Assembly: GCA_937944855.1 (NCBI GenBank)
Contig: CALFAY010000022.1
Location: 14,507-78,506, forward strand
Reading direction: 5' to 3'
Length of the DNA: 64,000 bases
From: an uncultured Planctomycetota bacterium
Lineage (GTDB): Bacteria > Planctomycetota > Planctomycetia > Gemmatales > HRBIN36
Below, in pieces: positions 4,293 to 36,838 of this stretch (the first letter of the stretch is position 1; each line of letters begins with the position of its first letter). Under the pieces are notes generated by a model, which saw only the letters and a program-made list of their open reading frames with translations, was not told the DNA's origin and did no database searches. The position numbers were made by a program, and so were the translations under genes.

Positions 4293-5892
4293 CTCCCGGT
4301 CTGCCGGCCTCGACCACGAAGGAAGCCCGCGTCACCACGTTGCCGCCCGACTGGGTCACGTCCTCGACCACGACGTAGTCGCTGGTCCACAGCGTCGGCG
4401 TGATCGTGCAGCGGACGTAGCCCCGTTCCCGGTTGAAGAACTGGATGCACGGATTGGCTACCAGCACCCGCTGCGCTCCTTCGGGCAACTCTTTGGGGCC
4501 GTTGCCGCCGCTGGAAATGCTGGTGCCGACAAACTCCGTGGCGACCACCGGGGCGTCGTGAACCCGGTCGTCCACGCGGAGATTGTTGACCCAGTTGCAG
4601 TGGATGTCGCCGGTGAGCACGATCGGGTTGGGCACCTTGCGGTCGGCGATGAACTGCATCAAGGCCATGCGTTCGTGGGCATAGCCCGGCCATTGATCCA
4701 TCGCATAGCCCTTGCGCAAGGGCGTGTCGAACTCGACCATCGCCATCATGACCTGCTGAGCTAGCACATTCCAAACGGCGGTCGAAGTGATGAGTCCCGC
4801 TTGGAGCCAGCCTTTCTGCTTGCGGCCCAGGAGGGTGTTGTTGGGATTGAGAGCGGCCTCGTTGAGCGGCTTGACGCCGTCGCCGTTGGGCTGGTCGGTG
4901 CGGTACTGGCGGGTGTCGAGGACGAAGAACTCCGCGAGTCGGCCGAACGACGCCTTGCGGTACAGCTGCATGTCCGGGCCGTGTGGCAGCGACCGGGGAC
5001 GCAACGGCATCATCTCGTAGTAAACCTGATAGGCGGACGCCCGGCGGATGAGGAACTCGACGGGATGCTCCGGCTCGACGCCGGGCCGCTGCTCTTCCTG
5101 GATGTCGTTGGCGTAGTTGTTCTCGAACTCGTGATCGTCCCAGGTCACGAACCAGGGGCAGACGGCGTGCATGCCGTGCAAAAGCGGATCGTGCCGATAC
5201 TGCATGTGCCGCAGCCGATAGTCGGCCAGCGTCCGGAGGCGGGTCCGCGTCGGCCCGGAATGCTTGCGGACCAGGTTATTCCGCGGCGGACCTTCGTAGA
5301 TGTAGTCGCCCAGGTGGAAGACCAGATCGACGTCATCCTTCGCCATCTGCGCATAAGCGGTGTACAAGCCCTGCTCATAATGCTGGCAGGACGCGAACGC
5401 CATGCGGAGCTTCTCGGGGATGCTATCGGGCCGTGGAAGGGTGCGGGTCCGACCCACGGGGCTGACCGCATCGCCGACGTGAAAGCGGTACCAGTACCAG
5501 CGGTCGGGTTTCAGCCCCCCGGCCTCGACATGGACCGAGTGGCCCAGCTGTGGAATGGCCATCGCCTTGCCGCTGCCGACGATCCGCTTCATGCCCTCGT
5601 CCTCGGCGATCTCCCAGCCGACCTCGAAGATCTCCGGCTTCATGCCGCCGTCGGGATCTTCCGGCACGGGAGCGAGCCTGGTCCAGAGCACGACGCTGGA
5701 ATCGTCGGGATCGCCGGAGGCGACGCCAAGCGTGAACGGAGTGCTGGCAAAGGCGACCCGGCGAGCCGACGGCTGGGCGCGCAGGGCCAGACTGGGCAGG
5801 GCGGCCAAGGCCGCACTCGTTGCCAGAAAGAGCCGACGGCTGACGCCGCCTTCGTAATGAACCGCTTCCGCGATGCGAGTCAGATCGAGCAT
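4279..5892 (-). CDS. phoD: Alkaline phosphatase D family protein, Tat-exported
   Basis: SRRLFL twin-arginine signal; FTLGVASGDP, FHLGDYIYE, WDDHE, LDTRQYR, TGDIH motifs. Confidence 0.93.
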   Translation of the reverse strand: MLDLTRIAEAVHYEGGVSRRLFLATSAALAALPSLALRAQPSARRVAFASTPFTLGVASGDPDDSSVVLWTRLAPVPEDPDGGMKPEIFEVGWEIAEDEGMKRIVGSGKAMAIPQLGHSVHVEAGGLKPDRWYWYRFHVGDAVSPVGRTRTLPRPDSIPEKLRMAFASCQHYEQGLYTAYAQMAKDDVDLVFHLGDYIYEGPPRNNLVRKHSGPTRTRLRTLADYRLRHMQYRHDPLLHGMHAVCPWFVTWDDHEFENNYANDIQEEQRPGVEPEHPVEFLIRRASAYQVYYEMMPLRPRSLPHGPDMQLYRKASFGRLAEFFVLDTRQYRTDQPNGDGVKPLNEAALNPNNTLLGRKQKGWLQAGLITSTAVWNVLAQQVMMAMVEFDTPLRKGYAMDQWPGYAHERMALMQFIADRKVPNPIVLTGDIHCNWVNNLRVDDRVHDAPVVATEFVGTSISSGGNGPKELPEGAQRVLVANPCIQFFNRERGYVRCTITPTLWTSDYVVVEDVTQSGGNVVTRASFVVEAGRPGAKPA

Positions 5893-5950
5893 GAGACAGG
5901 CTCCTCCCCCTTCGGACGGCTGACGCCCCCGCCGATCTCCTGTTCACGAG

Positions 5951-6919
5951 TCATTGATCCGGTGCGGCTTGCCACCCGTAGGTCACATATTCACAGGTCG
6001 AAGTTCCGTCGTCGTACAGGTCCACCAGCGCGTAGCCCTCGGCGAAGTGCTGGTTCTTGCCCTTCCACCAGCCGCCGCAGACCGCCCCGTTGCAGTAGTA
6101 AGTGGTGCCCAGATACACAACAGCATCGACCAGGTGCATGTGTCCGCTCAGGCAGACCTTGACGTTGCCGTGCTGGTGGAACAAGGCCGTCAGTTTTCGA
6201 GCGTCGAGGTGCATCCAGGAACCCGGCACGACCCAATCGCCGGTCTTCTCGTTGTGGCCGTCGAGAAATGCACACGCTGCCAGGATCGGGATGTGAGACA
6301 GGATCAGGATCGGCGTCGTCCGCAGCGTGGCTTTCACCTCGGCTGTCAGCCAGGCGAACTGTTCCTCGTCCAGCCGACCATCGTAGCCGTGCCGATTCGG
6401 ATTGGGTTGAGTGCTGTCGAGGACGAGAAACTTCCAACCGGCCTTGTCGAAACTGTAGTACCGTCCCGGCAGACGCAGCTCCTCGACCGCCCAGGCTTTG
6501 CCATAACCGACGTCTTCCGGCTTGGCTCCCGAATTCGGTCCCCAGCCCCAGACGTCGTGATTCCCGATGCATGATTGATACGGCAGCGAGCACTCGGCCT
6601 TCAGCACTCGATGCCAGACATCCCACTGGGTCCGCGTCCGCTCCCGGGTCTGGTTGAAGGAATCCATGATGTTGTCGCCGCCGAACAGGATCAGGTCCGG
6701 CTTGACGGCCTGATTCTGGACATGGTGAAGGCAGGCGGCGAAGCCAGCGGCGGCGTTGCGTTCCGGCTGCACATGCACATCGGTCAGATGAGCGATGCGG
6801 AGGACGCGCTTGCGGGATGCCCGGTCGGCCCAGGCGGAGACGGCCAATGGACCTGCCAGCAATGCCGAAGCCGCCGCCAGGAAGGCGCGCCGGGTAGGAT
6901 GGCGAGAGGATGGGGCCAT
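5951..6919 (-). CDS. Tat-exported calcineurin-like metallophosphoesterase
   Basis: TRRAFL signal; DVH, GGD, GNHD, SHIP, GHMH metal motifs. Confidence 0.9.
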   Translation of the reverse strand: MAPSSRHPTRRAFLAAASALLAGPLAVSAWADRASRKRVLRIAHLTDVHVQPERNAAAGFAACLHHVQNQAVKPDLILFGGDNIMDSFNQTRERTRTQWDVWHRVLKAECSLPYQSCIGNHDVWGWGPNSGAKPEDVGYGKAWAVEELRLPGRYYSFDKAGWKFLVLDSTQPNPNRHGYDGRLDEEQFAWLTAEVKATLRTTPILILSHIPILAACAFLDGHNEKTGDWVVPGSWMHLDARKLTALFHQHGNVKVCLSGHMHLVDAVVYLGTTYYCNGAVCGGWWKGKNQHFAEGYALVDLYDDGTSTCEYVTYGWQAAPDQ

Positions 6920-7042
6920 CGCGGGGAACTCCTGATGGTAATAGGCAACATAACCCTACCAATACCGGCTGAGATTCGAGTTGTCTCGTGTTTTTTCAGT
7001 AAAAGCGGCGTGGAGAAATCGGCCTGGCCGGCGGACGCTGTT

Positions 7043-13581: not shown

Positions 13582-13655
13582 GGGCTGTTAGCTCAGCTGG
13601 CTAGAGCGCACGGATCACACCCGTGAGGTCGGGGGTTCGAATCCCTCACAGCCCA
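13582..13655 (+). tRNA. tRNA-Val (anticodon CAC)
   Basis: Cloverleaf: GGGCTGT/ACAGCCC acceptor stem, GCTC/GAGC D-stem, CACGG-ATCACAC-CCGTG anticodon arm, TTCGAAT T-loop; CCA not encoded. Confidence 0.96.
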
Positions 13656-22727: not shown

Positions 22728-25541
22728 TCAACCCTTTGGCAAGTGAACAAAGATGCCGAGTACGTCGGGAGGCAGTTGCGGCTCGACGCGGTGGCTGACG
22801 CCCTTGGTGCGGCTGGCGGCGCGGACGCGCCGGTGGGCTTCCAGGAGTTCCTCGCCCCGCTGGCGGGCATGTTGTTCGAGGTGAGGGCGCAACACGTCAA
22901 GACCGTCCAGGACGACTCGCAGGAAATGGGCCGCCTGGTCGGGCGTGACATTGGCTTCGGGTTCGGCCAGAAGCAGCGCCTCGGCCTGGTCGGCGGCCAG
23001 CCATTCCGCGTTCTGTGGCGACCCCGCGAAGGCCAGCAATTGCGAGTCTTCGGCGAGCAACGGGCGCTCCTGCTCGCCGTAGCGGGTAATGATGTGGAAG
23101 CGCAGGCGGAGCAACAACAGCGTGGTGCGCCGTCCGACCTTGCTGGTGCGGATGACGCCGCAACGCCGGGCCACACTTTCCAAGTGTGGATCGAGGGCCG
23201 TGTTCAGGACGTAATTCGCCAGCCGTTCCACCAGGGGGTGTGTTCGTGTCAACAGAAGCTGGCCTGAAGAAACCGGCAGCTCGAACCGAGCCGAGAAACG
23301 GATGGGCGCTCCGAGCGTATCGCGCAAGGAGCGAGGAGCTTCGGAAAGATCAACGCGAATCGGGTCGGTGCCGCTGACGCTTGCCCCGTAGGCAGCAAGC
23401 GCGGTGCGGGTGAATGCGGCCACATCGACGCCGGAACCGACAGCGGCCCGGGCAGCTTCCACCTCCCGGACCACTTCGTCCACCTTGATCGTCTCCTGGG
23501 CGAACATCGTCCGCGAGCGCTTCTCCCGCTCGGCAGAAGCTTCCCAGGTGCGACGCAGTTCGTTCCCTTCCACCTCACTGAGGTACTCTTCAAACAACTG
23601 CGGTTGGACCGCCTTTCGGCCGCGAAGCAACATGCCCTCAAAGACGGCCTGGATGACCTGCTCGCTATCCATCGGCAATGGTACGGAGATCCCCAGCGAA
23701 TTGCGGATGGCGCGGTGCTTGCGGAGCAGGACGTCGAGAACGACGCCGTCGATCTGGTTGTCCGTGCCGTAGTAGGTCAGGGTTCGCACGTTCGGGCTGG
23801 GCTGGCCATAGCGGTCCACGCGGCCCTCGCGCTGTTCATGCCGGGTGGGGTTCCACGAGAGGTCGTAGTGGATGACGGCATTGAAATGTTGCTGAAGATT
23901 GATTCCTTCGCTCAGGCAGTCGGTGCAGACCAGGACACGTTTTTCGGCCTGTGCCAGTTGCGCCACCCGCTCTTCGCGCACGACCGGGGGCAAGTTGCCG
24001 GTGATGGCCACGACTTCGACGCCTTTGAGCCTCTCGCGCAAGGCGGAGGCGACGTATTCGGCAGTGGGGATGAAGCGGCAGAAGAGGATGGGCTGAAAGC
24101 CGTCGCGGATCAGTCCCTCGACGATGGGGATGACTTTCTGGAGTTTGGCATCCTTGCGGCCCTGGAGGGCGTCGGCCTCACGGGCCATTGCCAGGAGACG
24201 AGAGCGGACGGGACCGGCATCGTCGGCATCCTCGCCCGGATCGCTGCCGGGTGCCAGGTCCATCGCCTCGCTGGATTCCTCTTCGACGAGATCGAGCACC
24301 GTGCGGCGGCCGAGGGCGTCGGCCTCCTCGGGCGAATCCGTGTCGGCAGTGGCGGCGCGGGTGCGGAGCGTCGCAGCAGCAGCCGCGGGACTGGAGGCCA
24401 TCGACCGGAGCAAGGCCAAGGCCGACCACCAGCGGACACGCTGCCGCTGGGCCGTGACTGTTGCTGCCGGGTCCGTCACCGTCTCGCGTGCATACTCCAG
24501 GACCTTTTGAAAAAGCTGCTTGTACTCAGGGGAAAGTTTGTAGGTTTCCTCGGCCTCTTCGCGTTCGGGGAAGGGGGTGTCGGCCTGCATGTAGTGGCGA
24601 ATGTCACCACGCCGGCGTTGGACGAAATGGGCTGCCAGCCGACGGCGATGGTGCTGGTTGGCCGGGCCGCTCAAGTCATCCGGCAGGTTGCCGAAGTCCC
24701 GGTCGAGTAGGGTGAGCAGGGCGCGGAAGTTCTCCTCCTTGCCACTGTGGGGCGTGGCCGTCACCAGAATCAGATGTCGGTCCGAGTCGGCAGCCAGACC
24801 TTTCACGAGTTGATACCGTTGGTGTCGGCTGCCCCGGCCGTCCTCAGCCCCAAGGCAAGTGTGCGCCTCATCCACGATGACCAGCTCGGGACAGGCCCGG
24901 AGGAAGTCGTCGCGGCGGCGATCAGACTTGATGAAGTCGGTCGAGACGATGACGTAAGGGTGACGTTCAAAGATCGACTGGCCCAGGCGGCAGGCTCGCT
25001 CCAGCCGCGTGACGGTGCCCGGCAGGACCAATTCGGCGTCGAGGTGGAACTTGCTGCTCAGCTCCGTCTGCCACTGTTCGGCAATCTGTGGCGGACAGAG
25101 GATGGCAAAGCGGTTCACTTCGCCGCGGTCGATCAACTCCCGCACGATCAGGGCGGCCTCGATGGTCTTGCCGATGCCGACGTCGTCAGCGATCAGGATG
25201 CGCACCGGGTCGAGCTTGAGGGCCATGAGCAGTGGAACGAGTTGATACGGTCGCGGCTCGAACGCCAAGTGACCAAAGCAGCGGAACGGCCCGGCACTGG
25301 AGCGAAAGCCCAGGCGCAAGGCATCCCGCAGCAACCGACAAGAGCGGTAGTCGCCGAGTTGGGAGGGATCGGGCAGAGGGAACGAGGCTGCCTCAACACG
25401 TTCCAGGGGCAAGTAAATGCCCGCTGTTTCATCTTCTCCTCCGCCCAGAGGGCGAACGATGATCAGGTCGTCTTTTGATTCGGGCAGGACAACCCAATCG
25501 CGGCCGCGAGCCCGCACTAACGAACCGACAGCAAAACTCAT
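22728..25541 (-). CDS. SNF2-family helicase (DrmD-like)
   Basis: ADDVGIGKT, VDEAH, TATPHSG, SEGINLQ, WNPTRHEQREGRVDR. Start overlaps the upstream stop (ATGA). Confidence 0.92.
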   Translation of the reverse strand: MSFAVGSLVRARGRDWVVLPESKDDLIIVRPLGGGEDETAGIYLPLERVEAASFPLPDPSQLGDYRSCRLLRDALRLGFRSSAGPFRCFGHLAFEPRPYQLVPLLMALKLDPVRILIADDVGIGKTIEAALIVRELIDRGEVNRFAILCPPQIAEQWQTELSSKFHLDAELVLPGTVTRLERACRLGQSIFERHPYVIVSTDFIKSDRRRDDFLRACPELVIVDEAHTCLGAEDGRGSRHQRYQLVKGLAADSDRHLILVTATPHSGKEENFRALLTLLDRDFGNLPDDLSGPANQHHRRRLAAHFVQRRRGDIRHYMQADTPFPEREEAEETYKLSPEYKQLFQKVLEYARETVTDPAATVTAQRQRVRWWSALALLRSMASSPAAAAATLRTRAATADTDSPEEADALGRRTVLDLVEEESSEAMDLAPGSDPGEDADDAGPVRSRLLAMAREADALQGRKDAKLQKVIPIVEGLIRDGFQPILFCRFIPTAEYVASALRERLKGVEVVAITGNLPPVVREERVAQLAQAEKRVLVCTDCLSEGINLQQHFNAVIHYDLSWNPTRHEQREGRVDRYGQPSPNVRTLTYYGTDNQIDGVVLDVLLRKHRAIRNSLGISVPLPMDSEQVIQAVFEGMLLRGRKAVQPQLFEEYLSEVEGNELRRTWEASAEREKRSRTMFAQETIKVDEVVREVEAARAAVGSGVDVAAFTRTALAAYGASVSGTDPIRVDLSEAPRSLRDTLGAPIRFSARFELPVSSGQLLLTRTHPLVERLANYVLNTALDPHLESVARRCGVIRTSKVGRRTTLLLLRLRFHIITRYGEQERPLLAEDSQLLAFAGSPQNAEWLAADQAEALLLAEPEANVTPDQAAHFLRVVLDGLDVLRPHLEQHARQRGEELLEAHRRVRAASRTKGVSHRVEPQLPPDVLGIFVHLPKG

Positions 25542-28500
25542 GTCTTCTTCCCGAAAATGTGGGGGTAACGGGCCAGGATGTTCTCCCAGTCATCCTGATG
25601 GTGGAAGCGGATGACCGTGTAACCAGCGTCTTCCATGCACTCGGTCTTCATCAGGTCGCGTTGTGCTCGTTCGGGGTAGTCGTGGGGAGGTCCATCGATG
25701 TAGATCGCCGCCTGATACTCCTGGTAAAAGAAATCAGGGCGCGTCTGGCATCCTTCGATCCGATGTTGAGCGTGGCTGGGAAGGCGAAGGTTGTGTGCTT
25801 CCAGAAGCCTCAGCCAGCGCCGCTCCAACTCTGAGCCAGCCAAGCCCTCGAGCATGGCGAGGTGTTCGGCGCGGGTCTGGCCGCCCGGGGCGGTTTGCGC
25901 GCGGGCCTGGGCAAGCCGAAGCAGCAGGTCGCGGATTTTCTGGCGATCCAGGCGGCGATGCACCGGTTGGTTGCCGTAGTGCATCAGGCAGTCGTAACAG
26001 GCAGCTTCGCAATCCTCACGGGCCTGCTCTGCACGGCGTCGGTCTTCTCCGGTGTCGGGGTCGAAGTGGCAGATCTCCAAAGCTCGACGGGCGACTTGGG
26101 CGAAGGCATCAGCATCGTCGAGCAGCCGGCGCAGCACACCGGCCCCGCCCTCGGCAGACTCGTACAAGAGCAGGAGACGTGGCCGATCTTCATTGGGCAG
26201 CAGCTCGGTGGCCAGCTCGTTCTCCTCAAGTTGGTACTGGACCTGGATGGCGTTCTTCAAAGCGGCCTGCAAGGAGACCATGCAGTCGAGATCGAGCGGC
26301 CTGACCGGTTCAAAAAGCAGGCAGTTACGGTGGTCCTCGACGTAAGGGATCACCCGCTCCGTGCGAGGCGACAAGGGGTCTTCGAGGTCGTCTTCGTTCT
26401 GCTCATTGCGCGACCAGAAGCCCCGCTCTTTGTCGAGAACGAAGCCGAACTGGAACTTATTGTGGCGACGGGACCAGCCCAAATTGATTCGCCAGAGGGT
26501 GGCGGCCCTGCCGTACGTTAGCGTGGCCAGGAGGTCGGCCCTCTGCATCAGGCGTGCATTGCGCTGAACAGGCATGCCACCTTGTTCGGCCAGGCGGATG
26601 CCGGTGCGGATGTCGTAGCCGAGGCGAAGCCGCTCTTCCTCGTCGCAGTTGATCCTGTCGCGCCGCTTGGTCGCTACGTTTTGCAGGCGGAGGAGCGGTC
26701 GTAACGGCGGCGGCAGCGCGCTGCCGCATCGCTGGCACAAATCCGGGCCAAGACATTCGGGAATCGGATGCAAGTAGCCGCACTGGTCGCACTGCTTGGC
26801 CTGAGTAGTGAGCAGATCCTCGTCCTGCACCGGCAGAATAACTTGGTTAATGATGTATCGTGAGCCTTCATGGTAAACAATCGCTCGCGGACCGAATTCG
26901 GAAATGGCGAGGAAGCGTGGGCGGGACAGGTACTCCTCGCGTTGCCGAGTGCGGCGGGCTGGGATGAAGGCCGACAGCGGCAGACGCGGAAAGCTGTAGC
27001 CCGGCAAAAAGCCCTCGCTGGCGAAGTAGCGGTAGCTGTAGAAGTCGCTCTGGGCGAAGTCTTCGGTTTCTGTCAAAAGCTTGAGCTGTGCCTCGGCTTC
27101 GCGCCGCAGGCGCTCGGCCTGCTGCTTGTCGGCCAGCGGCCGGGAGGCGTCACGGATGATGCGGTCCTGCGCTGTCGCCTGGGTCAAGGCGGAGCGGTAT
27201 AGCCCTCGCCAGCGTTCGCACGCCTGATCGAATTGCCGTACTACTTGGCTGAGCACTTCGTCCAGCCAGCCGGGGGTGTACCAACCGCCCTGGTGCAATT
27301 CCTCTTCGAGGGAGGCCAGCACGCGCTCGGCTCGGGCCTTAGCCCGCCGGCGCGCCTCCGGGGATTCGACAGCACTGCGGACGCTGGGCAACAGCTCGAG
27401 TGTCGGTTCGACACCTCTCAGGTCGAGCAGGTCGCTGAGGGATTTGCCCAGGCTCAGGCCGGTTTCGGCCAGCCATATCGCTTGGACGTGCGCGCGGATC
27501 ATGTCCTCATTGGCGAGGTCCAGGCGCGGAGGCGTAACTGCCCCACAGACCATGCGTTCCGGGCGGCGAAAGAAATACTGATCGTGGGAACTGCCCGTTG
27601 AACAGTAGGAGATCACTAACGCAGGTTGGCCGCTCCGCCCGGCCCGACCGCTGCGCTGAGCGTAGTTGGCGGGCGTCGGCGGAATGTTACGCAGGTTGAC
27701 AACGTTCAGGTCGGAGATGTCAATGCCCAGTTCCATCGTCGGCGAGCAGTACAGGACCGGCAAAAGCCCCTTACGGAAACGGTCCTCCCGATCGAGCCGC
27801 TTCTCGTAGGGAACTTGGGCAGTGTGCTCACGGGCCTCCAGCCCGTGCAGCGAGGCGGCCACGTTCTTGTAGAAATCCACGAAGAACCGGTTTGTCCGAC
27901 TTCCGGTGGAGGGTAATCGTGGCACGCGGATGGGATCGTGGAGGGGACGCGTTCCATCTCCAGCGACCCAGAGCAGGGTCGAGGCGGGGACCTGGTAGCC
28001 AGGCACGTCGTCGTTGCCACGAGCCGGAACGACAGCCTCGACTAGACCGCCGATTTGCAATGCACGCAATAGGTCGCGGATGATCTGCTGCCGGTCGTCC
28101 AGGGTCAAGCGGCCCGGCGTCTTTCGGAAGGTGCTTCTCCGGCCGAGGTATTGGCCGAATCCGCCGCGTGCCGTCAAATAGACGTTGCCGCCGTAGTCAT
28201 CCTTGCCTTGCCGGGGTCGTGGGAAAAGGACGGCGGCGTGTTCCATGTCCGACGATTCGTTCTCGTCGATGGCCCAAGGCTCGATCAGCCGCTGGCTGCT
28301 TTGCTGCAGGAGGTTCTCTTGGTAGGTCGGGTCGAGATAATCGACCTTTATCGCCAGCTCCCGCCGCATGAAGTCGAGAAGGACACGGGCCACACGCTGG
28401 CGGGTCTCGGCACTGGCTTGTTGCAATACTGGGTGACAGTTACTCCAAACGTCTGGGGCCTTGCAGACCTCTTCCAGGGAAAGATAGCGGATTTCCAGCA

Positions 28501-30717
28501 GGCCGCACTGTTCCAGATTCGGTGCGGTGACGCGCCATCCACGCTTGAGGTCACGGTAAAGGCGATAACCAAGGACATTTCGCAAGGCCCGCTGCGTTTC
28601 TGCCAGAGCCTGAAACTTGGCACTGGGGTTGCTAGCGTACATTTCCACCGGCAGCCTGAGCGCCTCGAAGACGCGCTGGGTCAGTTCCTCGTGCCGCAAG
28701 CCAGACTCTCCGGCAGCTCGGACCGCGGCGAACAGCGCGCCGCGCAGCAGGCTTACCTCGACAAAGTCGTTGAAATGTCCCGCTTGGAGCGAGGCGTCCT
28801 GGCGATTGTCGGTGAAGCTGAGCAGCTTATGCGCCTGCGGGTCCAGGTCGCTGGCCTTCAAACCCCGAATGGCCGACAGGCTCAGGATGGTGGTCGCCGT
28901 GCTACGGCCCTCGGAACCGAGGGCAGTCAATTTACCGAAGTCAGACGTCTGCAGAAAGTTATACGCTACGCCACAATTCAGGCAGAAACGGAACGGGGCG
29001 GTGACGAAGTAGCCGTCCCGCCCCTCAGTGCCCTCCACTCCATCCGGCCCGACCCGAACAGGCTGAGGGAGATCCTTCTGGCGGCTCGGCTTCACACGCT
29101 GCTGACCTCGGTGCTCTTCCACCCAGTCATCCGGAAGCCGGTCCAGCAATTGGTCAAGCTGATCGCCCGGCCAGGGATTGTTGCTGCTGAAATACAGGTA
29201 GCCCGCCACGTTGTCGTCGTTTCCAAAGCGGTCTCTCAGCTCGCGCGGCTCATAATGGATGCGTTGCCCTTCGTCTTCCGAAACTTTGCGGACGCAGTAG
29301 TATTCCTGGCCGCACTCCCGGCAGAAGACCAGCGGCAGCAGCACACGCTGCCGATCGCCGGGTACGAACTGCTGACCGTGCAACGTCAGGTAGCGGTCGG
29401 CCTCATTCTCGATGGAGGCGTAGACTGTGTCGCCTCGACTAATGAACTGGTGCAGTCGGAAGGCAAAGAGCGGTGGATTGGTCAGAGGGTCGCGCTTGCA
29501 GCGATAGCTGGCTTGAAGCTGGTCCTGGATGGCTTGAACGCATCGCCCGATGGAAACGCCTGTCAATCGACTGAGGGTGACAGCGGCTCCGTTAGACCCG
29601 CCGATGCTTTTGGGCGATACCCGGACCAGCCGCTCACTCCCCGGCTCCGCCTGAACACCGAAGGTACTTTCGATCCAGATCGACAACGGGTCGTTCACAA
29701 AGTCTTGGTAATCGGCAGGTGGTTGACGGGACGGATCGGCCAACCGCTCGGTCAATGCCGCAACGAACGCTGGGTCACGTTCGTCGCGGGGCGGCGTGGC
29801 CCGGCGCAGCGTTTCGCCGATGACGTGTTCCGGTCGGACGGGCACGCCGAAAAGCTGGCTGGCCACACTGGCAACCTGGGCTTGTTGCTCGGCGAAAGAG
29901 CCGGCGCCTGCCAGCGTCGCGGACGTGCCAATGCATTGCAGGTGCGGGGCGTTCAAGGCGTCGCGCACCCGCCGGATCAGCAGGGCCACGTCCGCCTTTG
30001 TCGTCCCCGGTAGGTGTGAAGCTCGTCCAGCACCAGAAACCGAAGCCCCTGACCGGCACTGACCAGTGGTTGCTCCTGGGGCCGCGTCAGGATCAACTCC
30101 AGCATCACATAGTTGGTCAGCAGAATGTCCGGAGGCTGGGCGAGGATGCGTTCGCGTTCGGCACTGGATTCCTGCCCAGTGTATCGCTAAAAAGTCACCG
30201 GGCCGCGCCCGTCCGGGTAGCCGTGGCAAAGGAACTTGTGTAGCTCACCTCGCTGGCTATTCGCCAAAGCGTTCATCGGATAAACGACGATGGCCTGGAT
30301 TCCTCGGCCGCTACCCATACGCAGGACATAATTGACGATCGGTACCATATAAGCCAAGCTCTTGCCCGAGCCGGTGCCTGTGGTGAGGACGTAAGACTCG
30401 CGGCTCTGGGCGATGCGGATGGCGTCGGCCTGGTGGCGGTGCAAACGAAGAGGGCGGCCCGTGCTCGACGGCTCGGGCTTGATGCGAAAGACCCGACTGC
30501 ACTCGCTGTGGAGGATGCCTTGGGCGACCAGTTCGTCGATGGACGGGCCAGACTCGAAGGACGGATTGAGCTGAATAAGTGGTTCGGGCCATAGAACTTC
30601 GGACTGGAGTTGCTGTTCCACGAAGTGCCGGAGCCGTTCGTCGCTGACTCGAATGAAGCTGCGTATGTAAGCCGCGTAATCCTCGATCACCCGGCAACGG
30701 AGTGCAAAGATATTCAT
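25538..30717 (-). pseudogene. YprA-like DEAD/DEAH helicase with DUF1998 and C-terminal Vsr/DUF559-like nuclease; premature stop and frameshift
   Basis: TGTGSGKS, YPMNALANSQ, DELHTYRG, SPTMELGID, QRSGRAGR, CEAACYDCL, RPDF...IDGPPH. In-frame TAG at 30187-30189 (VTF*RYTGQE); one base missing near 29996 (YRGRQ|ADVALL). Confidence 0.9.
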
Positions 30718-31744
30718 CGCGCCTCTCCCCCATGCCAACAGGTGGCTTTCGACCAACCAGGCAATGATGCCATGAAACCTGGGGCTACTGCTCCGCAGTG
30801 TAGCTTGGTGGGAACGACACCCGTACTTGCTTTTTTGTCCATCCAAATGATATCCGCAAGCTGGGCAGGGAACAGCCAAGGTTCCGAAAGGCAGGAAGGT
30901 AGCAAAATAATGTTGAGCGCCGGACAAAGAAAGTGCCGGCGGATACACCCAAATCTGGAAGGACCTGGGCGCCCAGCTTGGACAAACGAAACGAACGGTT
31001 AGCGGAGGCAGAAGCAAACTTCCGTGCCCGGCTGAATTCCTCAACTCGTGATGATGCCCTCAGCAGCCTTTTTGACGGAGTTTCTTTACCAACCATGGGT
31101 CGGGCGAAACCGGCCGCGAGCAGTTCCTGCCTTCGTTTGATCCCCTGTTTCAGGCCAGCAGAGTTCATTTCCGAACACCGGTACCCTCCTTCACACTAAT
31201 TGGCCTATGTTATGCTGCGAATTGCGGAAACGTTGGAAAAGTAAGAGCCAACAGGCAGAAGCTCGGTGAGTGTGTTATTATCAAGCTGCAATCGCAGTTC
31301 TGCCTTGCAGCTTTAACTTCAGCGATGCAGGAAGCCAGCGGAGTGATTTGCCATCTCGAAATGGGACCATCTTCCTGACTACAAGGCACGAGCTCTCGTG
31401 CGTTCGGCACTGCGCAGAATGAGGAGATCTCAAGGCGGGCCTTTCACCAAGCGTGAGATACGTGAAATCGTACCAGATGTGATGCAGTTGTCAAAAGAGG
31501 AGTGCAATATTTCAACTTGGACGAGGGAGAGGTGCAGACTTCTTCTCTTAAGACTCTTGGTTCGAGGCCTGATTTATGACCCTCGTCTCGAATCGGGTGC
31601 CTCACCCGATTCGGCGACACACGGCGAATCCGATAGTTCGTAGCTTACTGAGAGTTGACAGTGTACCGCGTTATTGGTCCGGACGATCAAGAACGGATTC
31701 ATCGTTAAAGCCATGGGAACCGTGTTCCCCTTCGACGTGACAAT

Positions 31745-33814
31745 TCACCAACCCGCTTCGTCCGGATTGATTCCTGCCCCTGTCATCGTCGGTTCCGCCA
31801 CACTGATTTGCTTAAGCTCTTGCAGGTCGGTGTGGAGATCGTCCAAGTCACCCATCGCCCCGGTCCCATCGTTACCGACGGCGACGAGTCGCCGGGCTTG
31901 CTCCCGATAAACCTCGACTTGGGCTTCGTAGAGTTCCACAAGTTGCCCAACACACGCCTTGACCCACGCTTGCAACTGTCGGTCGTGGACTTCGACCTGC
32001 TCCTGCAACAATTTCCCCAGGCGGTTTTCGAGCGTCTGGCGAGTCACCCATAAAGCCAGACGAGGGAAAAGCGAAGCCCACCAGGGTCGGACGCAGTGCA
32101 ACTTCTCCTGGAGCGGCGTGAGATCCAAGACCGGCAGGCCACGGAAGATCAAGCCCCGGATCGCGGTCTCATCGGCCTCGACCAGCGGTGCCGACTGTCG
32201 CAGAGCTTCCAGGCTGCGAACCAAGTTCTGTTGGAGAGCGGCCACCAACTCCTGAGCCATCCTGTCCCGTTGGGTCAGGACGTACTGAAGCGCATCAAGG
32301 ACTGGCTGCCCATTTTTGCTGGCGCACTTCACCACCGCTTGGGCCGCGTCGCTCAGGGCGATCTTCACCAGGGAAGGCCCGTCCGTTGTCCGGTCTCGGC
32401 AGCGGACCTGGACTTGACGAATCTCCTCGTCGGTTTGGTCGAGGTACTGCCGCAAAGCTGTCGCGCTGGCTGAAGAACGGCCCTTGTCACTTCCGCCCTC
32501 GCTCCGTGTCGCAAGCGTCTGTAACTGTGTGATGACAGACTCCCGCAGGAGGTTGATCTTGCGCCGCAGGGACGCTTCCAGCAAGGCTCGATGCCGGACC
32601 AATTGCGGCTCGACCTCGTTCTCAAACCATCGGAAGAGCAGTTCCTCATTGGAGCCCATGGTGCTGACGGGATGGACCGGTAGTTCGAGGCTAAGCTCCC
32701 GCCGCACATTTTCGCGGATGTAATTCACCGCTCGTTCCCGATCAGCGGGCGTCAGCAGGTCGGCCTTGCTGAGCAGAACTTGGGCTGGCACGCCTGCCTC
32801 GTAGAGGAGCCGAAGCAGGTCCAGGTCCTCCGGGGTAAGGGCGGAGGCGGCATCGATCAGCACCACGCCCAGGTCGCAGTGCGGCAAGTAGGCCAACGTC
32901 TCCGCACTGCCGGACCGGGCCAACGAGCCGATGCCCGGCGTGTCCACGAGCACGATACCCTCGCGGAGCCTGGCAGCGGGGAGTTGCACGAGGATGTCAG
33001 TGACGTGTTTCTTATTGCCGGGGTTTTTCTCTTCCGAAGCGTAATTGCCCAGTTCCTCCAGGGGGACGGTGCGGGGCGGCTGTTCAGCGAACGAGATGAA
33101 AGCGGCAGCCTGATCGCCGCTTATCAGCCGGGTTGGCACGGCGGTAATCGGGGTGACCCCCACGGGAAGAACGTCTGCACCGATGAGGTGGTTCAGGAGC
33201 GTAGACTTGCCGGAGCTGACACGGCCGAACATGGCAATCTCGAAGCGGGGGGCTTCCAGCCGACGCACGATCAGGTCGAGCTGAGGCCGAAACTCGACCA
33301 GCCCCCAGCGTGTGATTACCCGGTCGAGCACCTGGAGCATCTCCACGTTGGCGGGCGCTGCCTCCAGGCGCGCCAGCCGTTGCGGCAGGTCCTGGCCCAG
33401 ACCCTGGCGCAGATAGTTGGCGATGCGGTCGATGACCCGAGAGAGTTCCTGTTGAATCTTGAGGGCTTGTACCTGGCCACTGGCGTCCAGAGGACCGTAA
33501 CCGCGCAGTCGATCCGGACTAAGCTCTGCGGTGGCGATATTCAAAAAGATCATGCCGCACTGCAAGGACCAGCGCAGGCTGGTCTGATGCACCTCCAAGG
33601 GAATGTCGGCTTCTTGCAGGCAGGCAAGCATGGTGCTGCGCAGGCGGTTGAAGTAGTCCTGAACTACTCGCCTCTCGGTCGGCGACAGGTCGTTGACGTA
33701 TTGCGAGAAGGGGGAGGTATTCAGGCTCTGGGACAGCATGGCCTCCATCTCCGCCAAGCGCCGGTGGATATCGAGGAAGCTGAAAAGGACAGAACGCTTC
33801 TGGGATTCGTTCAT
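31745..33814 (-). CDS. Bacterial dynamin-like GTPase
   Basis: G1 GRVSSGKS, G2 region LPVGVTPITAVPT, G3 DTPG, G4 SKAD; helical N- and C-terminal regions; RBS AGAGG before ATG 33814. Confidence 0.9.
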   Translation of the reverse strand: MNESQKRSVLFSFLDIHRRLAEMEAMLSQSLNTSPFSQYVNDLSPTERRVVQDYFNRLRSTMLACLQEADIPLEVHQTSLRWSLQCGMIFLNIATAELSPDRLRGYGPLDASGQVQALKIQQELSRVIDRIANYLRQGLGQDLPQRLARLEAAPANVEMLQVLDRVITRWGLVEFRPQLDLIVRRLEAPRFEIAMFGRVSSGKSTLLNHLIGADVLPVGVTPITAVPTRLISGDQAAAFISFAEQPPRTVPLEELGNYASEEKNPGNKKHVTDILVQLPAARLREGIVLVDTPGIGSLARSGSAETLAYLPHCDLGVVLIDAASALTPEDLDLLRLLYEAGVPAQVLLSKADLLTPADRERAVNYIRENVRRELSLELPVHPVSTMGSNEELLFRWFENEVEPQLVRHRALLEASLRRKINLLRESVITQLQTLATRSEGGSDKGRSSASATALRQYLDQTDEEIRQVQVRCRDRTTDGPSLVKIALSDAAQAVVKCASKNGQPVLDALQYVLTQRDRMAQELVAALQQNLVRSLEALRQSAPLVEADETAIRGLIFRGLPVLDLTPLQEKLHCVRPWWASLFPRLALWVTRQTLENRLGKLLQEQVEVHDRQLQAWVKACVGQLVELYEAQVEVYREQARRLVAVGNDGTGAMGDLDDLHTDLQELKQISVAEPTMTGAGINPDEAGW

Positions 33815-33856
33815 GGTGGTCGCCTCTGGTTGGACCTGCCCCCAGCACGCCTCGCC

Positions 33857-33893
33857 GCAAAGGAAAAGCCCTCGGGAAGGCTCCCGAGGGCTT
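33857..33893 (-). terminator. Intrinsic terminator in the dynamin gene leader (riboswitch expression platform)
   Basis: AAGCCCTCGGGA-GCCT-TCCCGAGGGCTT, a 12-bp stem followed by TTCCTTT on the minus strand. Confidence 0.85.
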
Positions 33894-33933
33894 CGGCTCA
33901 CTTACTTGGCCCCTACCCGAAGCGAATGCCTTC

Positions 33934-33988
33934 CGGTAGGGGTTATCAGCCGCATGAGGCGGCGGTTGATGGCGAACCCCATCGCCAC
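33934..33988 (-). ncRNA. Fluoride riboswitch (crcB motif)
   Basis: Minus strand reads GGCGATGGGGTTCGCC-ATCAACC-GCCGC CTCAT GCGGC-TGAT-AACCCC-TAC: P1 GGCGA/TCGCC, P2 GCCGC/GCGGC, pseudoknot GGGGT/ACCCC, conserved GATGG, CTGAT and CTAC. Confidence 0.93.
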
Positions 33989-33992
33989 GGTA

Positions 33993-34021
33993 AATCTATC
34001 CGCTTACGGGTTAACCGGCAA
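33993..34021 (-). promoter_or_regulatory. Sigma70-type promoter for the riboswitch-dynamin transcript
   Basis: TTGCCG-17 nt-TAGATT, ending 6 nt before the first G of the aptamer. Confidence 0.7.
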
Positions 34022-34053: not shown

Positions 34054-35442
34054 TTAATTGACCTTCACTTCGCCCAACGACAGCCAACCTGGAGCGTCGG
34101 CGTCCTGAGCGACATTGGCAAAGCGCAGCGGCTTGCCACCTTTCATCGGATTCGGCACCCACACTGCCAGAACGTAACGCCCTGCTGGAACGCCTTTCAG
34201 CTCAAGGACGTCGCGCCAGACTCGCGGCTTGTCACCCGGAAGGAGGCCGATCAGTTTGCCTGAGCCGGGGAATGTCTTGATCGGTTTGCCATCGTTCAGC
34301 AGACCGAATTCCGGCCTCCAGTCGTAATAGAACGGAGCTACACCACGGTTTTCGATTTCCAGTTTCACCTCGATTTGGCTGCGTGCCAGGGTGCGGATAG
34401 TGACACCGGGGCAATGAAACTCATAACCCATCCGTCGGACCTCCTCCTTGGCCCGCTGGATCCGCTCGGGATTCTGTTTTCTGCGAAACATGCCGCTGTC
34501 CATCAGCCAAGTGACGTGTGTCGCCTCGACACATTGGCGAAAGTTCTGAATTCTCGGGTTCCCCGGGTCCGGATCGAAGACCCGTCCCCAGGCTTCCGGG
34601 CGAATCTCGCCGCCGATGGGATGGGTCTTCCACCGCGCTTCGGCTTCCGGGCCGGCCGCTTTCAGCGCCGTCATGAAAAACCACTCGTCTCCCCTTTTGC
34701 CCGTATGCAACGTCGCCCAGGCAAACGAATCGTCGTGGTAGCCGAATCTGCGGTGGGCCGTCGGGGCCTTGGTTGGGTCATTCGGACCGGCTGGGTAACG
34801 CAGGAGGATAGGCGTAGTCTGAAAGGCCGACTCGTAGGCGTCCAGGACTTCCTCCTGTACCTGCTTGCTGGCGAACAGATCATCGCGGGGCCAGTTGTGC
34901 CATTCTCCCCAGGTGCCCAGAAGACCAGCCGTGATGAATCCGATGCGGGGATCCCCGTCGTATTTCTTGCCCAAAGCGATGACGAAGTTTTTCAGCGACC
35001 GCCTCAACTTCGGATCCGAGTAGTCCGGGGTTTCCAGCATGGCCGCCGGTTTGTCCGGAAACTCCTGAAAGGGCCAGCGCGTCACCTTCAAACCATCCTT
35101 TATCAGAAACTCTGGGATGACTCCTGACTTGTTGGGATACTCGAGGAAGATCCGGAAGACCGTTTGATGGCCACGCGAGGCGATGTCGTCCAGGAGGCGT
35201 TCCAGCGGTTGCCAATCGAATTCGTCGTAACCCTTCACAAGTGCCGCGTAGGGGAGATAGTTGAACTCCATGCTGTGGGGAAAGCGGTCACGGACGTCTC
35301 CCTGATAGGGAACGAGTCCCTTCAGCGGGTTGTCCACCGGTGCCGGGGCATATGCCAGGGCACGACGGGCATCGTCTGCTCGGGTAGCGCTGAGAGCGGC
35401 CAAGACGACCAGCCACAGCAGAAGCACCGCCAGACGAAACAT
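34054..35442 (-). CDS. Secreted DUF4832-type (glycoside-hydrolase-like) protein
   Basis: Signal peptide; PVDNPLKGLVPY, GLLGTWGEWH, PIGGEIRPE, NRGVAPFYYDW, KPLRFAN. Confidence 0.75.
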   Translation of the reverse strand: MFRLAVLLLWLVVLAALSATRADDARRALAYAPAPVDNPLKGLVPYQGDVRDRFPHSMEFNYLPYAALVKGYDEFDWQPLERLLDDIASRGHQTVFRIFLEYPNKSGVIPEFLIKDGLKVTRWPFQEFPDKPAAMLETPDYSDPKLRRSLKNFVIALGKKYDGDPRIGFITAGLLGTWGEWHNWPRDDLFASKQVQEEVLDAYESAFQTTPILLRYPAGPNDPTKAPTAHRRFGYHDDSFAWATLHTGKRGDEWFFMTALKAAGPEAEARWKTHPIGGEIRPEAWGRVFDPDPGNPRIQNFRQCVEATHVTWLMDSGMFRRKQNPERIQRAKEEVRRMGYEFHCPGVTIRTLARSQIEVKLEIENRGVAPFYYDWRPEFGLLNDGKPIKTFPGSGKLIGLLPGDKPRVWRDVLELKGVPAGRYVLAVWVPNPMKGGKPLRFANVAQDADAPGWLSLGEVKVN

Positions 35443-35479
35443 CGGGGCCTCCAGTTAACTCTCCCTGGGCCGCTCGACC

Positions 35480-36406
35480 TCACGCGGCGTTGAACGCCTT
35501 GCGAAGGAGTTCCAGGCTTTTCGGGATAGCGGTCACGGGGTTTTCCCTACCCTCGAATTCCAACGACACATAGCTGCGGTATTGATGTTTATGGAGAAGC
35601 CGGGCGATGCGATCGTAATCCAGGTCAAGCGTGTACCAGAGTCCGCCGCCGTAGTACGTCTTGGCCTGAACCAGCACTGTCTTGGGAGCGAGTTGTTCGA
35701 GTCGGTCGTAAGGATCCTCCAGGAAGTTCCCGGTGTCGAGCGTGACTTGCAGCCAGGGGGAGTTGATCGCGTTGACGATCCGCAAGACTCCTTCGGGAGT
35801 GCGTCCCAAACCCCAGTGATTCTCCAATCCCAGAATGACGCCGCATTTCTCGGCCGTTTTCAGGCAAGCCGTCAGCCCGTCGATCACCCACGGATAGGCG
35901 TCCTCATCGGTGTAGCCTTGGATCGGCGGCTCGAGGCCACGATTCTTCATCAGCTCGTCAAAGTTCTTGCTAGTCCGCCAAGTCCCCGTGTTGACCCGCA
36001 GCGTCGGAATCCCAAGTTTGTAAGCCAGCTCGATGCAGTGGATGGTATGATCGACGTTCTTCTGTCGCTCCTCCTTCGAGGGAAACAGGAAGCTCTGATG
36101 CGTGGAGAAACCTATCAGGTCCAAGCCGTTCAGGAATGCACGGCGTTTAATCCTATGGAGCGCGGCATCGCTCTCGTCCGTCATCTGTCGGTGAAGGATC
36201 TCTACGCCGTCGAAGCCCATGTCGGCTGCGGCGTCAATGCACCTGTCGATGTCACGCCACTCAGCTCGCTGGAACTGCCAAAACGAATAGGTCGAAACGC
36301 CGATGCGGTTGCGGATTCTTGCCTTGGTCGGCTCGGCCGAGCAGAGACCCGAGGTCAGACCTCCCGTGACCGCCACGCCGAGAAACGTCCGACGATCCCA
36401 TAACAT
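35480..36406 (-). CDS. Sugar phosphate isomerase/epimerase (xylose-isomerase-like TIM barrel), Tat signal
   Basis: DRRTFL signal; GFDGVE, LENHWG, LDTGNF, SLEFEG. Confidence 0.88.
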   Translation of the reverse strand: MLWDRRTFLGVAVTGGLTSGLCSAEPTKARIRNRIGVSTYSFWQFQRAEWRDIDRCIDAAADMGFDGVEILHRQMTDESDAALHRIKRRAFLNGLDLIGFSTHQSFLFPSKEERQKNVDHTIHCIELAYKLGIPTLRVNTGTWRTSKNFDELMKNRGLEPPIQGYTDEDAYPWVIDGLTACLKTAEKCGVILGLENHWGLGRTPEGVLRIVNAINSPWLQVTLDTGNFLEDPYDRLEQLAPKTVLVQAKTYYGGGLWYTLDLDYDRIARLLHKHQYRSYVSLEFEGRENPVTAIPKSLELLRKAFNAA

Positions 36407-36838
36407 GGAGAAGCTCCCCGATGGCTTCAGGAAGTTGTAGCTGAACCAGAAAAACCGCATCCAGGAGGATAATATCTCGTCCTCCCTGCTGCCAGGGTTG
36501 GGCCAACTCCGCAGCTTTTGAGACATCCGCTGGGTCGGACATATGCCATGTCATTTTGATTCGTGTTAAACATGACTTCTAACTTCGTGATGCTGGCATT
36601 TGCTGCTGTGAATTGAGGGTCGCGTGAACGGGCAGCGGTCGGTGGCTCTGGAAACGGACCGAGACACCGCGGCTGCTCGCGGGCACTGGTGGCTCGGTCA
36701 GCAGGGTGTGGTGCTTGCGTTGGCTGGGGATCGAGGGCACAATCAGCGTCTCGGCCCGCGAATCGCCGCCCAGCACCGACCCACTGCCAACGAGGGCAGG
36801 TTGGTCCGGGCCGAATCAGGAACGGGAGGACCTGCATC

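Follow-up and report, generated by a model that had tools for sequence, protein, structure and literature searches.

A fluoride riboswitch before the gene of a dynamin-like GTPase in an uncultured Gemmatales bacterium, and its recurrence among relatives

In canonical fluoride riboswitch operons the RNA sensor precedes genes such as crcB and eriC-F, and intrinsic terminators are among the expression platforms described for the class in Weinberg 2010. The operon of Enterobacter cloacae FRM, as given in PMC5533749, has the order ppaC-uspA-eno-gpmA-crcB. The present analysis concerns a stretch of 64,000 nucleotides of contig CALFAY010000022.1 from an uncultured planctomycete of the order Gemmatales (hereafter the window), in which an aptamer of the same class, with the same P1, P3 and pseudoknot, stands on the minus strand before a single gene coding for a dynamin-like protein (DLP), here termed DLP1 (P0001). 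The window's own genome, an assembly of 3.99 Mb in 63 contigs that is 94.5% complete, is referred to as G000; other G numbers denote relatives, and L numbers denote loci. A search of sequencing runs listed no RNA run and three DNA metagenome runs of a single study, one of which may be where the DNA of the window comes from.

Like the canonical regulons, the fluoride regulon of the relatives of G000 holds crcB, DUF190, enolase, NhaP and Usp genes. Unlike the canonical operons, the gene controlled here codes for a dynamin-like GTPase, and the exporter gene of G000 has no aptamer within about 1.5 kb. The expression platform differs as well, since in the window leader an intrinsic terminator lies downstream of the aptamer and is accompanied by a separate anti-tail strand as antiterminator, whereas the platforms of the class in the accessible part of Weinberg 2010 have a terminator that overlaps the aptamer. 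No dynamin-like gene is named in the accessible parts of Weinberg 2010, of the 2020 orphan-riboswitch review and of the Enterobacter operon paper (PMC5533749), and in PMC9971707 GTPases appear in the reference list only. The pairing of fluoride riboswitch and dynamin is unmentioned in searchable full text, an entry in a supplementary gene-context table being possible. Neither the riboswitch nor the protein belongs to a new class or superfamily; what seems unreported in searchable full text is their conserved pairing.

On the protein side, DynA of Bacillus subtilis is linked to protection against membrane stress, and IniA of mycobacteria, which is isoniazid-inducible, is a stress-induced bacterial DLP that presumably maintains membrane integrity. 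Orthology of DLP1 with DynA was rejected, because DLP1 scored 49.2 bits against an equivalog cut-off of 1600 (NCBIfam NF052648). The two proteins also differ in build, with two fused GTPase heads in DynA and only one GTPase domain in DLP1. The closest solved relatives of DLP1 are IniA, the DLP1/DLP2 pair of Campylobacter, the bacterial dynamin-like protein (BDLP) of Nostoc and mitofusin, and the alignment with them covers no more than the GTPase domain and the beginning of the stalk. IniA (PDB 6j72) was the best solved-structure match (E 5.9e-14, DLP1 residues 180-436). In comparison with it, DLP1 carries an extra N-terminal region of 190 amino acids, has no iniB or iniC neighbours, and has a different trigger, fluoride sensed by RNA in place of cell-wall drugs sensed by proteins.

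The Campylobacter jejuni pair (PDB 5owv) was matched by the profile in both chains (E 4.4e-18 and 9.2e-17), and with this pair, as with Nostoc BDLP (2j68), similarity to DLP1 is confined to the GTPase domain. The long, N-extended form and the short form of Campylobacter are paralleled by DLP1 (689 amino acids, GTPase domain from residue 193) and by DLP2, a paralogue of 574 amino acids (GTPase domain from residue 69) found in some relatives of G000. Like the Campylobacter proteins, DLP1 and DLP2 share an operon or island in G236 and G218; unlike that pair, DLP1 stands by itself in G000. To our knowledge, no link to fluoride has been reported for the DLPs of Campylobacter or Nostoc.

Leader of the DLP1 gene and its proposed switch

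The leader and the gene comprise the following features.

33992..34020, minus strand: putative sigma-70-type promoter, read from the sequence
33930..33995, minus strand: fluoride riboswitch aptamer RF01734, covariance-model match
33986-33983 with 33974-33971, minus strand: aptamer P1, from the RF01734 match
33963-33960 with 33952-33949, minus strand: aptamer P3, from the RF01734 match
33980-33976 with 33943-33939, minus strand: aptamer pseudoknot, from the RF01734 match
33910..33942, minus strand: predicted switching hairpin, tail CCCCUACC (33942-33935) with anti-tail GGGUAGGGG (33918-33910), unconstrained minimum-free-energy fold
33859..33894, minus strand: predicted intrinsic terminator, stem and GCCU loop, then UUUUCCUUU, RNAfold
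33823..33827, minus strand: ribosome-binding site AGAGG, read from the sequence
31745..33814, minus strand: DLP1 gene, 689 amino acids, ATG at 33814, stop codon 31747-31745, from translation
32819..33238, minus strand: Dynamin_N GTPase domain, residues 193-332, from Pfam and motifs

An earlier note made from the letters of the window had described a promoter, a fluoride aptamer, a 12-bp terminator and a ribosome-binding site with ATG before a dynamin-like gene, and each of these elements was recovered, either at the coordinates given or a few bases away. The promoter consists of TTGCCG (34020-34015) and TAGATT (33997-33992) on the minus strand with a 17-nt spacer; it was not listed by a consensus scanner because 8 of 12 positions match and 9 are needed. 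At the aligned place in the orthologous leader of G188 stands TTGACA-17-TAGATT, and hexamers resembling -35 and -10 elements lie just 5' of the aptamer in the leaders of G188, G218, G129 and G055, only the first of which was aligned with that of the window. The aptamer that had been placed at 33986-33936 proved to be the structured core of an RF01734 match (33995-33930, minus strand) that covers the full model (positions 1-64) and scores 54.1 bits against a gathering score of 34 (E 3.2e-12). In an alignment of 19 aptamers, 98.8% of the helix and pseudoknot cells were paired, three base pairs were changed on both sides, and the covariation score was reached by none of 500 shuffles. In the window aptamer the P1 loop has G in place of A and the 3' tail has C in place of U, a compensated change; this pseudoknot pair (18-60) is AU in 14 of the 19 aptamers, GC in 3, GU in 1 and another combination in 1. 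The element is a canonical RF01734 fluoride aptamer.

The terminator, with arms AAGCCCTCGGGA and TCCCGAGGGCTT at 33893-33866 followed by UUUUCCUUUG, was formed by RNAfold; counting an outer G-U, its GC-rich stem has 13 pairs (33894-33882 with 33877-33865) and encloses the loop GCCU. A simple consensus scanner failed to list this RNAfold-predicted terminator at 33893-33866. The ribosome-binding site AGAGG (33827-33823) is separated by 8 nt from the ATG at 33814, and G004 has GGAGG at the matching place.

The minimum-free-energy fold of the window leader contains both the hairpin of tail and anti-tail and the terminator (z = -3.28), and free folding gave both structures in each of five orthologous leaders. 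These leaders share a common layout of promoter, aptamer, tail/anti-tail hairpin, linker and a nearly constant terminator, GAAGCCCUCGGGA-GCCU-UCCCGAGGGCUUUU, whose sequence is nearly identical in the leaders of G188, G129 and G055 and in the metagenomic leaders L070-L080. When the aptamer was blocked in transcripts cut short at the terminator loop, the anti-tail region paired with the 5' arm of the terminator in all five orthologous leaders, and in the full-length leader of G218 an antiterminator-like pairing won, with the aptamer blocked, even without cutting of the transcript. The tail, anti-tail and terminator arms of G218 differ from those of G000 in a matching way, with co-varying CUCCUACC and GGGUAGGAG.

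By computational folding, a competing expression platform for an ON switch is present in the window leader, with the anti-tail strand as the proposed antiterminator. Without fluoride, the tail would pair with the anti-tail strand, the terminator would form, and transcription would end before DLP1. With fluoride, the tail would be locked in the pseudoknot and the anti-tail strand freed; pairing of the freed strand with the 5' arm of the terminator during transcription would then let RNA polymerase read through into DLP1. A transcriptional ON switch of ordinary logic, with a separate antiterminator, is the most likely mechanism.

Recurrence of the aptamer before DLP1 and DLP2 genes

The survey of genomes covered 267 members of the order, G000 included, after a first set of 40 relatives in which G004 held the only clear orthologue (66% identity). 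Full-length DLP1 orthologues were found in 8 of the 267 genomes, G000 included, with identities of 48-66%. Five of the eight genes have an aptamer directly upstream (about 110-140 nt), two lie in operons headed by one, and one has none upstream. The direct aptamers stand 110-139 nt upstream on the same strand, singly in G000, G188, G218 and G129 and in tandem in G055. In the latter genome (contig C5, L063, about 4641-6993), the two aptamers precede a DLP1 gene that is split into two overlapping open reading frames (ORFs) by either a frameshift or a sequencing error. In G099 the order is aptamer, metallophosphoesterase gene, DLP1; in G236 a single aptamer is followed by crcB, a DUF190/second-dynamin (DLP2) reading frame and DLP1. 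As a control, an aptamer was present at none of 11 loci with distant DLP paralogues. In G001, of the same genus as G000, the orthologue of the gene neighbouring DLP1 lies at a contig end.

In G004 an aptamer is located 1.4 kb downstream of DLP1, where it controls Cytidylate_kin2-like, NhaP-type antiporter and Usp genes, an operon absent from G000. The region upstream of its DLP1 gene (L026 8330-8505) still resembles the platform of G000 and G188 at the anti-tail strand and the U-tract, as do the corresponding regions of L067 and L068. Such a likeness to a decayed platform would point to loss of the aptamer in the G004 lineage and not to gain in G000; with an alignment that is short and rich in GC, loss there is suggestive only.

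DLP1 is common in metagenomes despite its patchiness in genomes. Whereas an earlier scan with the single DLP1 protein, a query that reaches close relatives only, had found one relative (L031), a profile scan with an alignment of 40 sequences yielded 566 relatives, the best 80 of which were kept (36-66% identity). A local covariance model built from 19 local aptamers gave 92 matches in the 80 metagenomic loci. The assessable loci numbered 68, the other 12 having less than 250 nt of upstream sequence and not being counted. Such a count of homologues had been proposed in the earlier note, and a same-strand aptamer was found within 400 nt upstream of DLP1 at 42 of the 68 loci (41 of 67 without one positive locus whose upstream sequence is only 104 nt long). 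At 11 further loci the same-strand aptamer lies 493-2833 nt upstream, 8 loci have an aptamer only downstream or antisense, and 7 have none. The genes between a far aptamer and DLP1 code for NhaP (L109, L123, L135 and L137), NhaP and then Usp (L134), a HEAT/HAD-like protein (L131) or an AAA ATPase (L146).

Because the local covariance model was fitted to the DLP1 clade, 37 of the 42 direct aptamers were re-scored with the Rfam model (L080, L081, L082, L085 and L111 were left out), and 31 of these reached the gathering score. Aptamers below it, for example L096 2826-2893, L102 2792-2858 and L119 2815-2878, have GUUGG for GAUGG and GGAAGAU for GGCUGAU; such variants may have decayed or changed their function. 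A terminator was detected in 14 of the 42 direct metagenomic leaders. In distant clades the distance from aptamer to start codon is often 30-55 nt, no terminator was found, and a tail CUCCU faces GAGG; to judge from inspection of the sequences, these leaders apparently control the initiation of translation by sequestration of the Shine-Dalgarno sequence.

A FastTree phylogeny was built from 84 DLP1 sequences and two DLP2 outgroups after three short rows had been dropped. Each of the three major DLP1 clades includes members with an upstream aptamer, at least nine changes of state are required, and G000 is sister to the aptamer-less G004, L067 and L068 within a clade that otherwise bears the aptamer. 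Near-identical or identical rows of the tree are L074/L075, L096/L098, L067/G004 and L110/L113. A distant branch of 36-41% identity is, as a lead only, mostly from Acidobacteriota according to the Atlas. The earlier note would have given up its reading for a riboswitch orphaned by loss of its original gene had homologues consistently lacked the aptamer; since most homologues keep one upstream, that objection falls. Of the note's interpretation, a fluoride-induced response of membrane remodelling or of compensation, the regulatory claim is strongly supported by the canonical aptamer, the platform and the conserved pairing; the functional claim is weighed in the following section.

The association extends to DLP2, which was found in three of the eight DLP1-bearing genomes of the order (G218, G236 and G129); none was found in the other five. 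A fluoride island of 11.1 kb, contig C62 of G218 (L058, 1-11102), contains four RF01734 aptamers: one each before DLP1, DLP2 and a crcB-DUF190-enolase-MFS operon, and one at the contig end. The DLP2 orthologues of G236 and G129 are inside fluoride operons, and in a metagenome-assembled genome (MAG) of Thermodesulfobacteriota a DLP2 orthologue (37% identity over 490 residues) begins 67 nt downstream of an aptamer. The motif EEKNPGNKK in the GTPase domain is common to DLP1 of the window and to this Thermodesulfobacteriota DLP2, the G218 DLP2 having EAMNPGNRR. DLP1 and DLP2 make up a clade of their own, whose genes are found again and again under fluoride aptamers, either singly or as parts of operons.

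The aptamer-linked operon partners of DLP1 and DLP2 are crcB, DUF190, NhaP antiporter, Usp, Cytidylate_kin2-like and metallophosphoesterase genes. In G099 (contig C492, L059, 12000-31500) four aptamers within 12 kb precede an NhaP antiporter gene, an Alginate_exp-like outer-membrane porin gene, the genes of a SulP transporter and a phosphofructokinase, and the Metallophos-DLP1 operon, with an MgtC-family gene between. A recurrent first gene after a fluoride aptamer, often beside DLP1 or DLP2 (L026 12173-13357; L022; L079 3563-4825; L080 5167-5724; L147 131-1087), codes for a protein with two Cytidylate_kin2 domains, apparently an uncharacterised member of the regulon. At L133 (4024-5899), just downstream of DLP1, a fluoride aptamer stands directly before a GroEL (Cpn60) gene.

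The DLP1 protein and its likely role

The dynamin-like GTPase announced in the earlier note is a protein of 689 amino acids with a Pfam Dynamin_N domain at residues 193-332 (E 6.2e-23; 82.1 bits against a cut-off of 27). Its GTPase motifs are intact (G1 GRVSSGKS at 197, G3 DTPG at 291, G4 SKAD at 349), and the motif residues are invariant in 40 homologues except for the variable third position of SKAD. Pfam gave no match in residues 1-190, which are conserved, or in the C-terminal region, and the protein has no hydrophobic stretch of transmembrane grade. A conserved hydrophobic patch of the C-terminal region, RPWWAxLxPxLAxW at 576-590, is a candidate membrane-inserting element. Together with the lack of a transmembrane helix and the extent of the IniA alignment, which reaches residue 436, this patch is at most an indirect hint of the helical stalk (neck and trunk) and the paddle of a BDLP. 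The family is large, with at least 3766 matches at E <= 1e-10 among 8000 candidates scored; the top 120 homologues are all full-length (51-85% identity), and NCBI gives the name "dynamin family protein" to homologues in Isosphaeraceae, Thermoguttaceae, Phycisphaerae and other Planctomycetes MAGs.

As the earlier note had also remarked, no CrcB or CLC gene is present in the window. The only CrcB match of G000 is on contig C26 (L002 108940-112299), where a crcB gene for 134 amino acids stands before a UbiA prenyltransferase gene. No aptamer was found within 3.4 kb around this crcB gene (about 1.5 kb each way), even at E <= 1, so that crcB may be expressed without fluoride control. G000, at its 94.5% completeness, gave no match to the Voltage_CLC family. 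The one RF01734 match of G000 is that of the window, among the 150 of about 613 first-look candidates that were scored, a sample in which a weak copy could be missed. On present evidence, DLP1 would be the only riboswitch-controlled fluoride output of this genome.

We consider it moderately probable that the promoter-proximal fluoride riboswitch is a transcriptional ON switch for the single gene DLP1 and that the protein has a role at the membrane. DLP1 would be made only under fluoride stress, would bind, remodel or repair the cytoplasmic membrane, and would thereby complement ion and pH homeostasis. In the relatives, co-regulation extends to genes for the balance of ions and pH, for general stress and for enzymes sensitive to fluoride (CrcB, NhaP, Usp, enolase, phosphoesterases), a context that leans towards a dedicated stress role for DLP1.

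Several observations weigh against this interpretation. The nearest lineage (G004, L067 and L068) has DLP1 without an upstream aptamer, as have 15 of the 68 assessable metagenomic loci, and 6 of the 37 re-scored direct aptamers (L096, L098, L102, L108, L119 and L124) fall below the Rfam threshold and are changed at conserved positions. The metagenomic counts overstate independence because many loci are close kin or duplicates. DLP1 itself is patchy, being present in 8 of the 267 genomes of the order, and a sample of 400 genomes from outside the order in the same phylum gave none at E <= 1e-60. With the aptamer blocked, the terminator remained the thermodynamic optimum in the leaders of G000, G188, G129 and G055, so that read-through must there be kinetic and decided during transcription. 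It is by analogy alone, with IniA and with DynA, that DLP1 probably maintains or repairs the membrane. No DLP2 orthologue was found in G000, where the best match to the DLP2 of G218 is DLP1 itself (31% identity); if DLP1 needed a partner as in the Campylobacter pair, G000 would lack one.

Metal-fluoride complexes trap GTPases. Together with GDP, metal fluoride could disable a housekeeping DLP in this way, and a larger amount of the fluoride-sensitive DLP, or a fluoride-tolerant version, would keep up its membrane function, in parallel with riboswitch-controlled extra copies of enolase and pyrophosphatase. The relatives offer instances in the enolase gene that follows crcB-DUF190 in the fluoride operon of G218 and in co-regulated metallophosphoesterases and phosphofructokinase, as does the Enterobacter cloacae FRM operon with ppaC and eno (PMC5533749). 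However, no close second copy of DLP1 was found in G000, its DLP-like ORFs being only 23-30% identical; DLP1 is likewise the sole strong Dynamin_N match in G188 and in G099, and a gene that is off without fluoride cannot serve a constitutive function. Because no close constitutive copy of DLP1 was found, a function needed only under fluoride fits better than the back-up of an inhibited housekeeping enzyme, and we regard compensation as unlikely. Less likely again is that DLP1 acts, without remodelling any membrane, as a regulatory or chaperone-like GTPase, either a nucleotide-dependent partner that helps co-regulated membrane proteins such as CrcB or NhaP to assemble, become active or reach their place, or a contributor to a signalling pathway. 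Its operons with CrcB/DUF190 (G236) and with NhaP/Usp (L109, L123, L134, L135 and L137), its conserved N-terminal region of 190 amino acids without a family match, and the regulation of a diguanylate cyclase by an E. coli dynamin homologue, described in PMC13463826 and PMC6510439, would suit such a part; but in G000, G188 and G129 DLP1 directly follows an aptamer of its own, with no transporter gene seen beside it, and the closest solved relatives are membrane-acting DLPs.

It is very improbable that the riboswitch of another gene, such as that of the Cytidylate_kin2-NhaP-Usp operon, moved before DLP1 by accident and without adaptive meaning. An orphaned riboswitch was suspected after G004, whose aptamer controls that operon 1.4 kb downstream of DLP1, the operon itself being missing from G000, and it was rejected on the conservation data, with 31 of 37 tested aptamers passing the Rfam threshold. 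Against accident stand the recurrence of the aptamer-DLP1 layout, with a near-identical terminator, in G188, G129, G055 and many metagenomic loci in three clades, the resemblance of the G004 upstream region to a decayed copy of the same platform, and the window aptamer itself, which is well above threshold and has all parts of its platform intact. Induction of DLP1 by fluoride for a role at the membrane is the reading that we retain.

Neighbouring genes and wider significance

On its downstream side DLP1 is directly adjoined by a pair of defence-like helicase genes (22728-31044, minus strand). The first gene codes for a DruE-like DEAD/Helicase_C protein with an MrfA zinc-binding domain and a DUF559 endonuclease-like end; it consists of two overlapping ORFs (30187-31044 and 25538-30229) and is either frameshifted or mis-assembled. 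The second codes for a DpdE-like SNF2 helicase (22728-25541, minus strand; PADLOC DpdE, E 5.8e-267). The upstream neighbours (34054-36526, minus strand), a DUF4832/DUF4874 protein gene and the gene of a xylose-isomerase-like TIM-barrel protein, have no visible tie to fluoride. A tRNA gene is located at 13582-13655 on the plus strand.

The cellular roles of bacterial dynamin-like proteins are largely obscure, and here a fluoride sensor names a specific trigger for a whole clade, whose function therefore becomes directly testable. As a tentative view, less probable than a fluoride-controlled DLP1 in the window itself, the DLP1/DLP2 clade may be an unrecognised arm of fluoride defence across several phyla, the inducible response of some bacteria being membrane remodelling or repair and not export. 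In a bolder extension, the transition-state mimic of magnesium, fluoride and GDP would stabilise the assembled dimer of G domains, so that the ion that induces the gene would also act on the protein.

Since the pairing recurs in many related and distant bacteria, membrane remodelling may be an overlooked part of the fluoride response. The recurrent Cytidylate_kin2-like, HEAT-repeat and metallophosphoesterase genes mark a larger, uncharted fluoride regulon in Planctomycetota-like and soil bacteria. The picture of fluoride defence is widened beyond exporters and spare copies of inhibited enzymes, and the cell envelope may be a target of fluoride that needs active maintenance.

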